A DNA stretch of 14,792 nucleotides from Promethearchaeia archaeon (GTDB taxonomy: Archaea; Asgardarchaeota; Lokiarchaeia; Sigyniarchaeales; SOKP01): the NCBI GenBank assembly GCA_046497275.1, contig JAWOFX010000105.1:1-14792 (forward strand). The letters are read 5' to 3'. The position numbers and the translations under genes were made by a program. Shown in pieces: positions 2,023 through 14,493 of the stretch (positions are counted from its first letter, which is position 1; each line of letters starts with the position of its first letter). The notes under the pieces are model-generated. The model saw nothing but the letters and a program-made list of their open reading frames with translations. It was not told where the DNA came from and searched no databases.

Positions 2023-4280
<2,258 letters not shown>

Positions 4281-4436
4281 AAATATTTTGTTAATTTTAT
4301 GTAGAAAAACACCCTTCTATTTTTAATTATAATCTAAACTTGAGTTCACTTACTCTAACAAGAGTATTTTAATATTATTACTCTATTTTGATCTTAAGTT
4401 TTTAATTAGTAAACTAAGAAAAAAGAGATAATAAAT

Positions 4437-4691
4437 ATGACACAATATCGATTTAGATTAACAGGGGTTCCACCCGATCAAGCAATTAAGCAAATTGAAA
4501 TTGATCCGAATCAATCAATCGGAGAAATCAAGAAAACTGTCCAGCGCGAATATAAACTCAACCCGATTCTTGCAATCCAGTTTATCTTTAAAGGGAAGGT
4601 TTTACCCGATGATTTAAAGTTTGCCAAAATTGGGATTCATCCAAAGAAAGATGTTATAACTGTTATGGCGACTCAAGCTGGTGGAATTTAA
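4437..4691 (+). CDS. Ubiquitin-like beta-grasp protein (84 aa), C-terminus QAGG-I
   Basis: Aligns by eye with ubiquitin: IEIDPNQSIGEIKKTV ~ LEVEPSDTIENVKAKI; QFIFKGKVLPD ~ RLIFAGKQLED; di-Gly at the terminus followed by one extra residue (ggt gga att taa). Confidence 0.85.
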   Translation: MTQYRFRLTGVPPDQAIKQIEIDPNQSIGEIKKTVQREYKLNPILAIQFIFKGKVLPDDLKFAKIGIHPKKDVITVMATQAGGI

Positions 4692-4721
4692 TTTTTATTT
4701 TTTATTCTTTTTATTTATTTT
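4692..4721 (+). terminator. T-rich archaeal-type terminator after the Ubl gene
   Basis: tttttattttttattctttttatttatttt immediately follows the stop codon. Confidence 0.5.
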
Positions 4722-4783
4722 AAGCACTTTTAATAATAATTAAATTTGATTAAAAGAATTCTAACACTTTACTTTCTATAACC

Positions 4784-6067
4784 ATGAAGAAAGAAAATAA
4801 TATTCATAAAGCGTTACAAACCATTTTTTTAGATTTTGATGAAGATTTTTTCAATTTAACTAAAGAGGAGATTTTAAGATCTAAGGAGATCCAATTATTT
4901 TCTAAAATTGTTCCTAAATGGTTGGAAATTTTCAAAAAAGGATTTAATAGTGATCAAAATGAAGCCTATAGAACCTTAAAACATACGATTAGGACCCTAT
5001 ATGTATATTATTCTATTATGAACAATCAATTTGAAACCGACATAAAAGAAACGAATATGAAATTATTAAAAAATCAATTAGAGGAAATTTATAATTATAA
5101 CTCTCAACTCTTTCCATTAATCCTCCTATTTCATGATATAGGACGACCTTTCAATAGAACATGGCATAATATAGAATCTAAAAAAATTATACAAAACAAT
5201 TCTCTTTTAGCCAAATTTAATTTGTGTGAAATTGAAAAACATATTATCTTAACGGTTATTGAACAACATCTTCTTTTAGGAACAATTTTTACGGGAGAAT
5301 CTTCCTATTTAGGAAGTATTTCTCTTTGGAATTCAATAAAGAATTTGGGAATAAATCTCTCTGATGCTGATATGGATCTTATTTTTAAATTACTTTATTC
5401 TTTCACTTTAATTGATATATGGGGTTATGAATATTCTAAAATTTATGATCACTATTTCAATCACTATTTTGAGATTAGGCAGCATTTAGCAAAAATATTT
5501 AAAAAAACTTGGGATTTGAATAAAGAGATACAAGAAGGTTTTTTACAAAAAGAGTTATCTAAATTAGATTTTAAGAACTTTAAATGGCGTATTGCTTGTT
5601 CATTAAGAATTTTTCAATTTGTAAATACTAAAGATTATTTGACAAGAGATTTCTATTTTTCAAAAATTGAAGAGGGACTTCGAAAATCTAATATGAGATG
5701 GGAAAGTTTTGAGGAGAATTTAGGACAGAATCATCCAAAAATCCAGTTTAAATATGCTTTACCTATTATGATGATATTAGCTAGTGAAACGTTTAAACGA
5801 AAATCAATAGAAAAAAATGCAGAAATTCATCCTGAAATTTTTCAGTTTTGGATAGAGTCATGTAAAAAATTAGATAAATTCATTTCTAAAAATAAAGATC
5901 TAATTTCTCCATTATGCTATTATGTATTTAATTTACCAAGAACATGGTTTTTAGACAAAAAATATATTGATCTAGTAAGAAACCAAGGATTCATTATAAA
6001 AATTAAGAAAAATGATTTTCAATTTAATCAAGAAATTTTTGGGTATTTATTAAACATCCAAATCTAA
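4784..6067 (+). CDS. Stand-alone HD-domain phosphohydrolase resembling the GlnD/CCA-enzyme HD module
   Basis: Ordered motifs TLKHTIRTL ... LILLFHDIGRP ... WHNIES ... VIEQHLLLG ... LYSFTLIDIWG parallel GlnD's EHTLRV/LLHDIGK/DHS/VRHHLLM/LLTVADI. No NTase or ACT domain is recognisable. Confidence 0.65.
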   Translation: MKKENNIHKALQTIFLDFDEDFFNLTKEEILRSKEIQLFSKIVPKWLEIFKKGFNSDQNEAYRTLKHTIRTLYVYYSIMNNQFETDIKETNMKLLKNQLEEIYNYNSQLFPLILLFHDIGRPFNRTWHNIESKKIIQNNSLLAKFNLCEIEKHIILTVIEQHLLLGTIFTGESSYLGSISLWNSIKNLGINLSDADMDLIFKLLYSFTLIDIWGYEYSKIYDHYFNHYFEIRQHLAKIFKKTWDLNKEIQEGFLQKELSKLDFKNFKWRIACSLRIFQFVNTKDYLTRDFYFSKIEEGLRKSNMRWESFEENLGQNHPKIQFKYALPIMMILASETFKRKSIEKNAEIHPEIFQFWIESCKKLDKFISKNKDLISPLCYYVFNLPRTWFLDKKYIDLVRNQGFIIKIKKNDFQFNQEIFGYLLNIQI

Positions 6068-8024: not shown

Positions 8025-8627
8025 ATGAGCGAAGATTCTGAAGAGACAGAAAAAATTCAAGTAGAAGGTCTTATTGAGAATGATAAAGTTATAATTGAAG
8101 ATTCTGATGGGATTGCTGAATTCTATGAAGGGAGTTATATCGGAAATCTGGAAGAGAAGGAAAATAAAAATATTTTGATTTTAGATTCAATTGAGGTATT
8201 ATTACTTTGTGAGAGAAAAAGAATCATTCTTTGGGAAGATAATGATAAAAATAAAAATCAATATGACTTTGAGGGATTACTCTCGTACTTCTCGCAATTT
8301 GATAAAGAATTATGGCAAAAATATGTCATTTATATGGATTTAAGGAGAAGAGGATATATCGTTCGATCTGGTTATGGAGATGGAATTGAATTTCGTGTGT
8401 ATAAAAGAGGAGCTGATTTTAATGAAGATGTTGCGAAATATTTAATTTATCCCGTTTTTGAGGGGGCACCTATTGAATTGCGAGATCTAGATAAAATTTC
8501 TCGGGTTGCATTAAGCTCTCGAAAAGATTTAGTAGTGGCTACTGTCGATCGAATGAGTAAAGCTATATATTATAGTGTTAAAAAATTCGAGATACTCAGT
8601 CGAGATATTGATGGAGATAAACGATAA
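8025..8627 (+). CDS. endA: tRNA-splicing endonuclease family subunit, probably the structural (non-catalytic) subunit
   Basis: KYVIYMDLRRRGYIVRSG..FRVYKRGA..KYLI..RVALSSRKDLVVATVD matches the archaeal EndA fold over its full length; the catalytic His position is Val. Confidence 0.85.
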   Translation: MSEDSEETEKIQVEGLIENDKVIIEDSDGIAEFYEGSYIGNLEEKENKNILILDSIEVLLLCERKRIILWEDNDKNKNQYDFEGLLSYFSQFDKELWQKYVIYMDLRRRGYIVRSGYGDGIEFRVYKRGADFNEDVAKYLIYPVFEGAPIELRDLDKISRVALSSRKDLVVATVDRMSKAIYYSVKKFEILSRDIDGDKR

Positions 8628-12256: not shown

Positions 12257-13588
12257 ATGGTTGGAAGAAAAAGAAAAGTGTATGAACCACTCTGGAGACC
12301 CATTGAGGCTCAAGGCGAAAGCGGAGCCCGATTTTCATTAGGGACAATCCAATTGTTTTGTCCCGTCTGCGGAAGTCCAATGGTCGGTCCATTTGGAACA
12401 CGTGGAAAAGATGGTACCCGAGTAGAAGCATTTCAATGCAAGGAAAAAAAATGCCCGCATTTAGAGAACCATAAAGTTGGGAAAGAGTTTATCTTAACCA
12501 CTTCCTATCAATTCAAGGAGTTAGTATTTGATAAGCTTAAGGTTCTTTATGAAGACCTCCTGAAGGATGGCGCTAAAAATAAGACGATTGCAAAAAAATA
12601 TTCAATATCCGAATCGCAAGTATCGGCACTTAGAAGCGAGATTGAGTCTGCCATTGACAAGCTTAACGGACTCGATTCACTCGTGTTGATGTCTCAACCG
12701 GATACCGCGGTTGCCATTGATGAGACCTTCCTTAAAATCGAAGGTACCTCCATTTACATCATAATTGCCACGGGATATGCTTCTCGTAAAACCTTGGGAG
12801 TAAAAGTATCTAAAAGTCGCTCAAAAAAGGATATTCGCGAAGTGTTTGACGAAGCAGATGATAATACCGAACACCATATCACCACGATTACTTCCGATGG
12901 CTTGAATGCCACACAATCCATGGCGAAAAATTTGAACAGGGAGATCACCCATGTAATCCACCCCCATAAAAAACCGTTCAAGAAAGCAATCATCAGGCAC
13001 TATAGCTACGAAAATGACGAAAGAATCACGACCACGATTGGCGTGAAAAGTAATTTTTTTAAAAAGCGCGGCAAGCGGCAATTCAAGTACATGGAAGCGA
13101 GAACTGATCTACGACCTAAAGTAAGGAAAAAACGAGGGCGTCCAAAAGGGTCCAAAACCAAGAAAAAGTCAAAAAAGACGAGAAAGAAAAAAAAGCGCGG
13201 CCGTAAAGGACTTTACACGGTTTTTGATAAGGGAAAAACGGGTTATGCAACGATCGACCCCTATCGGAATAAATTAAAGTTAGGAAAAGGGATGTCCAGA
13301 CCGGTGGCGACCGGCCTGAACGCGACATTAAAGTTACATGCCCTAATGTCAATTCAGAATAATCTTGCAGAAAATATAAATTCTGTCCTCCGGGCTATTA
13401 TCCGGTTAAGAGGACCTAAAACCATCGAATCCGTGGAGAGACGCATTAGGGCAACATTAAAAATACGAAATCATCCTGAAATCTTAGAGCAGATACGGAT
13501 CACTCGACAAGTAAGGGGTGATTTCTTAATAAACAATCTAAAACTTGTGGATTACGCCGATCTACTAGAACGGGGGATTATCATGTAA
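12257..13588 (+). CDS. DDE transposase with N-terminal C4 zinc finger, HTH and AT-hook-bearing insertion
   Basis: C35/C38/C61/C66; HTH KNKTIAKKYSISESQVSALR; AIDETFLKI (D155, like IS6 DETYIKV); ITSDG (D214); QNNLAENINS (E372). Confidence 0.9.
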   Translation: MVGRKRKVYEPLWRPIEAQGESGARFSLGTIQLFCPVCGSPMVGPFGTRGKDGTRVEAFQCKEKKCPHLENHKVGKEFILTTSYQFKELVFDKLKVLYEDLLKDGAKNKTIAKKYSISESQVSALRSEIESAIDKLNGLDSLVLMSQPDTAVAIDETFLKIEGTSIYIIIATGYASRKTLGVKVSKSRSKKDIREVFDEADDNTEHHITTITSDGLNATQSMAKNLNREITHVIHPHKKPFKKAIIRHYSYENDERITTTIGVKSNFFKKRGKRQFKYMEARTDLRPKVRKKRGRPKGSKTKKKSKKTRKKKKRGRKGLYTVFDKGKTGYATIDPYRNKLKLGKGMSRPVATGLNATLKLHALMSIQNNLAENINSVLRAIIRLRGPKTIESVERRIRATLKIRNHPEILEQIRITRQVRGDFLINNLKLVDYADLLERGIIM

Positions 13589-13698: not shown

Positions 13699-14493
13699 TT
13701 ATGGTCTGGGAAATCTGCCCGGAAATCTACCTGGAAATCTGCCTGGTCTTCGTCTGGGTCCAAAAGGCCCGGGCCCCCACCTAGTATGCATAAAAGGTCC
13801 ATGTCTGTTATCATGGAGAACATTATCAATAGATAAAACAAATCCGACCAAGATTCTTCTGTCAGTCTCTTTATCGAGTATTTTAAGAGCGTATGTATCT
13901 TGGAAATCAAATATTCCCCCAAGAAAAATATCTCGCCATCTATCTGCTTTTTCTATTTCAGCAACAATTTTTCCCGTAGATAAATCCTCAATCTTATAAC
14001 TCCATCCCATAAATTCTCCTTGAGCTTCATACCAGCGTTTTCCTGATGGATCTTCTAACCAGAATTTAGGACGGAAGAATGAAGTGATTTTTTTCTTAAT
14101 ACGAGCTATGAGATTCCCCTCGGGATCTTTAAGATCTTGAGCCCCTCGAGCTGAAACAATTTTTTCATGGATTGTTGCGGCAACAGTTCCATCCGTTTCT
14201 AGCAATTCGATTTTCCTTCGTAGACTTATAAAGATCCGGTTCATTCGTCCAATAACTTCTCCATTTTCATCATATATGTCACCTCCACCCCAATCCCAGT
14301 ATTTCTCTTTAAGCACATAATATGTTCTGTTAAGATCGAATAATCCCAGTTGATTGGTATCTTGTTTCTGAGATGTTTGCTGAGTAGATTGCGGCGGAGA
14401 TTGAGAACGATTTAATTCTAATTTCTCACCACATTCTTCACAATATCGCTGATTTAAATCATTAATTTTAGAACCACAATTAGGGCAATACAT
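13699..14493 (-). CDS. Zinc-ribbon + LURP-one/phospholipid-scramblase/Tubby-C-like domain protein with Pro/Gly/Arg-rich tail
   Basis: CPNCG..CEECG; Q/S/P linker; YYVLKEKYWDWGGGDIYDENGEVIG..IELLETDG..IARIKKK..FWLEDPSG..GEFMGWSYKIED..VAEI is the repeated beta pattern of LURP/scramblase barrels, ending in the central helix RRILVGFVLSID. Confidence 0.8.
   Translation of the reverse strand: MYCPNCGSKINDLNQRYCEECGEKLELNRSQSPPQSTQQTSQKQDTNQLGLFDLNRTYYVLKEKYWDWGGGDIYDENGEVIGRMNRIFISLRRKIELLETDGTVAATIHEKIVSARGAQDLKDPEGNLIARIKKKITSFFRPKFWLEDPSGKRWYEAQGEFMGWSYKIEDLSTGKIVAEIEKADRWRDIFLGGIFDFQDTYALKILDKETDRRILVGFVLSIDNVLHDNRHGPFMHTRWGPGPFGPRRRPGRFPGRFPGRFPRP
13709..13744. repeat. 3 x 12-bp tandem repeat encoding (PGRF)3 on the minus strand
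   Basis: ggaaatctgccc / ggaaatctacct / ggaaatctgcct. Confidence 0.85.

Follow-up and report, generated by a model that had tools for sequence, protein, structure and literature searches.

A conserved ubiquitin precursor of Lokiarchaeia, its variable C-terminal tail and predicted tRNA-type mini-introns in orthologous genes

The reading frame at 4437-4691 of the analysed DNA (hereafter the window, 14,792 nt in all) encodes a real, strongly conserved and already known Lokiarchaeial ubiquitin, and no new kind of modifier. The best overall explanation, to which we give a probability of about three in four, is that its product is the ubiquitin of Lokiarchaeia, a stand-alone, near single-copy beta-grasp precursor in which Ile84 follows the Gly-Gly motif. 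The preliminary description of this DNA had proposed a ubiquitin-type modifier precursor whose enzymes are encoded elsewhere, and this part stands. It had also proposed that the modifier is new and recalls Ufm1, which does not hold, and that it is gated by processing, which the census of C-terminal tails given below weakens. The gene is one more orthologue of a catalogued family and belongs to the eukaryote-like ubiquitin toolkit found in the closest archaeal relatives of eukaryotes.

The ubiquitin gene and its surroundings

The gene and its adjacent elements are as follows.

4437..4691, + strand: ubiquitin precursor gene, an orthologue of Lokiarchaeial ubiquitin, with ATG start, 84 codons and a stop codon
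4437..4685, + strand: part coding for mature ubiquitin, M1-G83, with the end ...VMATQAGG, conserved in orthologues
4686..4688, + strand: codon of Ile84, a one-residue C-terminal cap at a position variable in orthologues
4692..4723, + strand: T-rich tract right behind the stop codon, read directly from the sequence, probably an archaeal transcription terminator
4397..4410, + strand: A/T-rich TATA-like element about 30 nt upstream of the ATG, read directly from the sequence, a candidate promoter

Intergenic spacers of 156 nt and 92 nt flank the gene, which may be monocistronic. As described earlier, the product of 84 residues ends in ...VMATQAGG-I-stop, a di-Gly capped by a single Ile. The neighbouring genes were different at each of six orthologous loci examined, with none in common. 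Within the 14,792 nt no E1, E2, RING or JAMM gene was found, in agreement with the preliminary description, and there is no sulfur-metabolism gene next to the ubiquitin gene in the window. A ThiF-like gene 2 kb from one orthologous locus was considered as a lead to a partner and rejected; it is a compact gene, with only 31% identity over the Rossmann part to the compact ThiF genes of the window's own genome.

The upstream neighbour (2244-4280, + strand) encodes LigA, a complete bacterial-type NAD+-dependent DNA ligase with adenylation, OB, Zn, HhH and BRCT domains; such a ligase is unusual for an archaeon, and the gene here was probably acquired from bacteria. Directly 3' of the ubiquitin gene lies the gene of a 427-aa protein (4784-6067, + strand) with no Pfam match at E<=0.001. 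At the far end of the window, a DDE transposase of the IS240 type, which bears a lysine-rich insert (12257-13588, + strand), adjoins a protein on the minus strand (13699-14493) that combines a Zn-ribbon with a LURP-one-related (Tubby-like) part and carries PGRF repeats at its end.

Salt-lake metatranscriptome contigs from the RNA libraries of two studies cover the ubiquitin reading frame over window positions 4423/4432-4681, with five differences from the window, all of them synonymous and at third positions. These libraries may include DNA, and the contigs show presence and not strand, transcript ends or expression level; the contig end at 4681 reflects a repeat skipped by the tool and is no evidence of an RNA end.

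Identity, distribution and selection

The window protein and Lokiarch_37670 share 77 of 84 residues without a gap, and the latter is listed as "Ub" in Supplementary Data 1 of Hatano et al. 2022 (PMC9192718). Since this family has already been published as Lokiarchaeota Ub, the gene is a rediscovery, and the earlier view of a distinct, orphan modifier has to be given up. Yeast two-hybrid interactions of Lokiarchaeota Ub with UEV, in a UEV-domain Vps23-like protein, were reported in the same study (Nat Commun, PMC9192718), and a 2025 preprint describes the expression in human cells of an MK-D1 protein that it calls ubiquitin.

Among 5.8 billion proteins searched, 188 homologues reach E<=1e-3, with identities of 70-95%, and all named sources among them are Lokiarchaeota, Promethearchaeota or Hodarchaeota. 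In the 301 species-level genomes of the phylum that were searched, the window's class is represented by four families, whose genomes have the gene in 58/68, 7/7, 1/1 and 1/1 cases, mostly as a single match with E ~1e-50. Beyond this class the phylum gave only a weak match (E ~1e-6), to a different, Heimdall-type ubiquitin ending in ...IARTEGG. Scans of the genome collection with degenerate DNA patterns gave mostly chance matches in bacteria, with a few extra orthologous loci and one more intron allele.

The ubiquitin gene is under extreme purifying selection. Comparison with 29 species-level orthologues gives an uncorrected pS of 0.84 and a pN of 0.038 (pN/pS ~0.04), with synonymous sites nearly saturated. 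This degree of constraint recalls eukaryotic ubiquitin.

At L051 (G297:C111, minus strand), the 3' end of the ubiquitin gene, with its last codons and the sequence behind its stop codon, occurs in two copies spaced by ~590 nt. The duplication may stem from an insertion that left a direct repeat behind, or from faulty assembly.

Fold and key residues

The 84-aa protein matches PF00240, the Pfam ubiquitin family, with 38.7 bits (E 8.5e-10; the cut-off is 25.4 bits), and its gene is the only PF00240 gene in the whole genome. It shows no match to ThiS (PF02597), Urm1 (PF09138) or Ufm1 (PF03671) even at E<=10. In the whole genome, Ufm1 gave no match at E<=0.05, and Urm1 a single weak one on contig C17, which overlaps a ThiS-type match.

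Because an AF2 model from the single sequence was poor (pLDDT 53), we used a model built from the alignment of 40 orthologues, which has a pLDDT of 90.2 and shows a ubiquitin-type beta-grasp. Specifically, it consists of strands at residues 2-8, 17-22, 46-51 and 73-79 and a helix at 28-38; the long loop connecting beta1 and beta2 contains a short helix, and the C-terminal tail is disordered with low pLDDT. The best structural matches, in Foldseek and in VIA, which is independent of Foldseek, are ubiquitin, NEDD8, SUMO, ISG15, Caldiarchaeum ubiquitin and UBL domains, with Foldseek probability 1.00 and TM 0.63-0.77, and VIA Z of 10-12 with rmsd ~2 Å over 73-78 residues. No natural MoaD/ThiS chain stands among the best 50 rows of either program. 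When solved structures are ranked by sequence, the UBL domains of Get5/Mdy2 and Rad23 come first, followed by ubiquitin.

Aligning the family profile with eukaryotic ubiquitin by hhalign places I50 at Ub I44, G53-K54 at G47-K48 and K32 at K27, while A78 and Q80 stand at R72 and R74 and the tail is longer by one residue. Among the 40 aligned orthologues, L8-T9-G10, I50, G53, G82 and G83 are invariant, and K54 and M77-A81 are at least 90% conserved. Since R72/R74 are replaced by Ala/Gln, recognition would have to differ from that by UBA1.

These data bear out much of what had been read from the sequence at the outset: a ubiquitin fold of eukaryotic type with a capped di-Gly, an LTG motif, an I44 patch, a K48-equivalent Lys, the loss of R72/R74, and a beta1-beta2 loop longer than that of ubiquitin. 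The orthologues keep the GG, and going by the structural matches listed the protein does not model as MoaD/ThiS. The proposed likeness of this loop to Ufm1 found no backing, as neither protein nor genome gives a PF03671 signal and the best structural matches listed do not include Ufm1.

The residues after Gly-Gly

The ...GG motif was found in 114 of 121 ortholog clusters. Within these 114, no residue follows GG in 28 (25%), one residue follows in 54 (47%), tails of two residues occur in 8, and 24 have three to 44 residues. The single residue of the 54 clusters is N in 16, F in 14, I in 8, K in 6, Q in 4, Y in 3, and others in the rest. A nearly invariant GG behind which the tail varies in number and kind of residues is what is expected of a removed propeptide. 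At the same time, since the tail varies and is absent in about a quarter of the clusters, the cap is dispensable and forms no conserved regulatory gate, which speaks against the processing gate that had been proposed.

Pro-ubiquitins with C-terminal extensions have already been described and put to experimental test in Asgard and Caldiarchaeum. The Caldiarchaeum pro-ubiquitin carries nine extra residues, which are cut by an Rpn11-like JAMM protease, and it is refractory to E1 until then (Hennell James et al. 2017, PMC5654768); for the Helarchaeial pro-ubiquitin GG-SPKN, a form expressed tail-less underwent conjugation in vitro (bioRxiv 10.1101/2023.07.25.550441). By analogy with the Caldiarchaeum precursor, Ile84 would have to be removed before activation. 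What the present census adds is that the residues behind GG are unconstrained and that about a quarter of the ortholog clusters have no need of trimming. As a warning for proteomics, the remnant that trypsin leaves on substrate lysines would be 12 residues long (DVITVMATQAGG), and not di-Gly.

Candidate conjugation and processing enzymes

We searched the window's own genome (3.85 Mb, 98.9% complete), and candidate E1, E2, RING and JAMM genes were found on other contigs, where the preliminary description had expected such enzymes to lie. Five ThiF-family genes exceed the family cut-off, and only the E1 on contig C45 is eukaryote-like. Its nearest match is the active adenylation domain of UBA1/UBA6 (E 1e-37), and the contig breaks off after 459 aa of it. 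Orthologues of this E1 were matched in 5/5 relatives and could be read at full length (528-531 aa) in 3/5; the layout comprises an adenylation and a Cys domain, two CxxC pairs and an extension at the C-terminus, and no Pfam domain beyond ThiF was detected in the candidate E1. An invariant ...AACTLKGLP... segment of the E1 aligns to ...FCTLKSFP... of UBA6, the segment that contains the catalytic Cys there.

The sole clear UBC-type E2 of the genome lies on contig C79, and contig C45 encodes, in addition, a 578-aa protein with UQ_con and RWD. There are three to five RING proteins, and five MPN proteins, four with an intact JAMM motif (H-x-H...S-x-x-D), encoded on contigs C185, C118 (two genes) and C128, and one without. 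Searches of 7 genomes found no USP, OTU or UCH; since the control genomes were silent too, this is not proof of absence. No candidate for the processing step other than the JAMM proteases was found.

Ubiquitin and E1 are paired here by elimination, because a single ubiquitin-type gene stands beside a single eukaryote-type E1 in this genome, and this pairing is new; E1 and E2 are candidates assigned to ubiquitin from gene content and elimination, not from linkage. A complex prediction of E1 (1-459) with ubiquitin (1-83), ATP and Mg scored 0.26 against a mark of 0.32, which gives no verdict.

This gene content also bears on two other explanations of the protein. In the first, it would be a non-conjugated adaptor that acts by non-covalent binding only, e.g. 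to UEV/ESCRT or to proteasome receptors, with GG kept for binding or stability. The closeness in sequence to the adaptor UBL domains of Get5/Mdy2 and Rad23 fits such a role, as do the many diverged relatives that are UBL domains within larger proteins and the fact that the only experimental datum on an orthologue is a non-covalent two-hybrid interaction. However, the product is a stand-alone protein of 84 aa, and its disordered ...QAGG is nearly invariant with the following residues free, a pattern typical of a cleaved and activated C-terminus. Moreover, the genome holds a complete E1/E2/RING/JAMM repertoire with no other ubiquitin-type substrate. We consider a purely non-covalent role unlikely.

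In the second, the protein would be a sulfur carrier or a dual Urm1/SAMP-like protein, whose C-terminal Gly a ThiF-type enzyme would thiocarboxylate to serve tRNA thiolation or the making of a cofactor; conjugation would then be of secondary importance or would not take place. To our knowledge, a GG end and E1-type activation are common to all ubiquitin-like modifiers and sulfur carriers, which counts for this explanation together with the five ThiF-family genes and the free GG in about a quarter of the orthologues, as is usual in ThiS/MoaD. Against it, the protein gives no ThiS, Urm1 or Ufm1 Pfam signal, its best structural matches are ubiquitin-type modifiers and UBL domains, and its neighbours include no sulfur-metabolism genes. 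In addition, four to five separate ThiS/MoaD-type genes on other contigs fill that role, the candidate E1 has a canonical E1-type Cys domain with ThiF as its sole Pfam domain, and the orthologue binds a UEV protein. Sulfur transfer as the main function therefore appears quite improbable, and a ubiquitin precursor remains the preferred reading.

BHB mini-introns in ubiquitin and E2 genes

Some ubiquitin orthologues show a variable insert of 10-11 aa within beta5, and one protein ends exactly there. In their DNA, six alleles have 30, 31 or 36 extra nt between the codons of ...DVI and of TVMATQAGG (site A), and a further allele carries an element at another position (site B).

L035:3213-3243, L039:3213-3242, L324, L325, L326 and L327: site A alleles, with BHB motif
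L331 (G030:C105): site B allele, with a 31-nt BHB element after codon 61

Site A lies 27 nt ahead of the stop codon, with the last nine codons (TVMATQAGG) downstream of it. The BHB motif consists of a 4-bp helix and two 3-nt bulges on opposite strands, and if each 3-nt bulge is cut at the canonical position, behind its second base, the conserved protein is regained exactly in 7/7 alleles. The central helix of site A shows a compensatory change (UAAU/AUUG vs UCAU/GUGA), and the inner helices of the BHB alleles are of unrelated sequences, all of which pair. In one site A allele, a stop codon and the length of 31 nt, which shifts the frame, exclude read-through. Gene callers had treated the intron as coding, so that the protein gained a 10-aa 'insert', or had cut the protein off. 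Lenient BHB-like motifs occur by chance about 5 times per kb in this AT-rich DNA; what counts is that the cut positions fit exactly, and do so in seven independent cases. On these grounds, the 30-36-nt inserts in Lokiarchaeial ubiquitin genes are identified as predicted tRNA-type BHB mini-introns. The window's own ubiquitin gene has no intron.

The genome's own E2 gene (C79 ~2870-3420, minus strand, L017) is split by a 32-nt BHB element, with the helix H AUGU/GCAU, the bulges AGA/AAA and the inner helix UCUC/GAGA. Excising these 32 nt restores a normal E2 C-terminus, ...GMMHVEPPFFNPGDPLN...KYAMD. The E2 gene has no ATG, GTG or TTG start, and its likely start is an ATT located six bases 3' of the ribosome-binding motif GGTGA.

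The papers searched describe BHB introns in Asgard tRNA genes and, as an mRNA intron, in cbf5 of Crenarchaeota. The alleles found here place the ubiquitin gene itself among the Lokiarchaeial protein genes able to carry BHB mini-introns. The window also encodes, at 8025-8627 (+ strand), a 200-aa protein with both tRNA-intron endonuclease domains, PF02778 and PF01974; it is a subunit of the splicing endonuclease, the enzyme expected to excise BHB introns from tRNA and, in this lineage, from mRNAs as well.

Proposed pathway

Combining the gene content with the literature, we infer conjugation of Lokiarchaeial ubiquitin by the following route. A JAMM/MPN+ metalloprotease would trim the Ile84 cap; this enzyme class is proposed because the genome has four JAMM genes with intact motif and no USP, UCH or OTU was found. 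The eukaryote-type E1 of contig C45, chosen by elimination, would then adenylate Gly83 and form a thioester. Ubiquitin would be handed to the UBC-type E2 of contig C79, whose own mRNA would need removal of the 32-nt BHB intron, and would pass from there to substrates with the participation of RING proteins. Chains via the conserved K54, the equivalent of Ub K48, and via K32 are possible. The two-hybrid interaction of the orthologue with the UEV-domain Vps23-like protein makes read-out by ESCRT-I-like machinery likely.

Taken jointly, these elements could describe a conjugated, possibly chain-forming modifier whose C-terminus is controlled, unlike in eukaryotes, by JAMM-only trimming and by BHB splicing. 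We put this joint reading forward as tentative, the odds being against all its parts holding together. If true, JAMM-only trimming could be the ancestral state of ubiquitin processing, and intron-bearing lineages would make no conjugation-competent ubiquitin without the tRNA-splicing endonuclease.

Comparison with known systems

Lokiarch_37670 of Lokiarchaeum sp. GC14_75 shares with the window protein the N-terminal motif FRLTGVPP, the ...VMATQAGG end and an Ile as the first residue after GG. It differs in its tail, which is ISIIH, five residues against one here, and it comes from another metagenome-assembled genome.

The ubiquitin of Caldiarchaeum subterraneum (PDB 6fnn) has the same ubiquitin-type fold (TM 0.76) and is likewise made as a precursor with residues after GG. 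Maturation by JAMM, the only candidate route found here, was demonstrated there (PMC5654768). In contrast, identity is only ~20%, the tail has nine residues there and one here, and the E1/E2/RING genes form an operon in Caldiarchaeum but are spread over several contigs here. The biochemistry of the Caldiarchaeum system is demonstrated, whereas its Lokiarchaeial counterpart is predicted here from gene content. The Helarchaeial pro-ubiquitin (GG + Ser-Pro-Lys-Asn) resembles ours as an Asgard pro-form with a functional link to UEV/ESCRT (bioRxiv 10.1101/2023.07.25.550441), but with its E1/E2/RING and UEV-Vps23 it is operon-encoded beside ESCRT genes; according to the same preprint, a UEV-Vps23 fusion protein is found in none of the Loki- and Thorarchaeia.

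With eukaryotic ubiquitin and NEDD8, the Lokiarchaeial protein has in common the fold, the equivalents of I44, G47-K48 and K27, the terminal GG, synthesis as a precursor and extreme conservation. Identity is ~20-25%, and the beta1-beta2 loop is longer here. Eukaryotic ubiquitin differs, besides, in having R72/R74 where Ala/Gln stand here, and a tail shorter by one residue, and the Lokiarchaeial gene is neither a poly-ubiquitin nor a ribosomal fusion. Ala at position 72 is the NEDD8 state. SAMP, MoaD and ThiS are likewise small beta-grasp proteins with a C-terminal GG and activation by the ThiF family, but PF02597 gives no signal here, the ThiS-type genes of the genome are separate, and the structural neighbours are of ubiquitin type.

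A new Asgard modifier with a Ufm1-like loop, a dedicated E1 specificity of its own and an obligatory processing gate is very improbable: the tail without R72/R74, longer than that of ubiquitin by one residue, and the distance in sequence from the Heimdall-type ubiquitin and from the operon-encoded Ubl of a relative would fit it, but the family is already published as Lokiarchaeota ubiquitin, a Ufm1 signal is absent and many orthologues are cap-less.

Fusions and relatives

An exhaustive profile search revealed, among diverged relatives, two proteins in which a Ubl of this family is joined to E2-like parts. P0172 is a natural fusion of a UEV/E2-like domain with a Ubl, and its best match in the window's own genome is the N-terminus of the UQ_con+RWD protein of contig C45; P0227 is an E2 with an inserted Ubl. 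In P0180, the GG of the Ubl is directly followed by a Hint/intein-like domain, and this protein is possibly a self-cleaving ubiquitin precursor. Taken as hints of function, the three fusions connect this family with E2/UEV partners and with cleavage behind its GG.

Further arrangements, seen in P0122 and P0132/P0158, include a tandem di-Ubl and a Ubl with a Cys-rich, Zn-ribbon-like tail. A relative of the same family as the window's organism has an extra operon of Ubl, 422-aa E1 and 174-aa E2 (L077, G204:C7, 151-2438, minus strand). The Ubl of this operon (P0270) has 112 aa, with an acidic, Ser-rich N-terminal extension and the end ...STAG instead of GG; as a single query, it found no match in the window's genome. 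Another genome of the same family (G135, genus g6) has eight matches to the family profile on several contigs, mostly as N-terminal Ubl domains of proteins of 600-1600 aa, which looks like a lineage-specific expansion.
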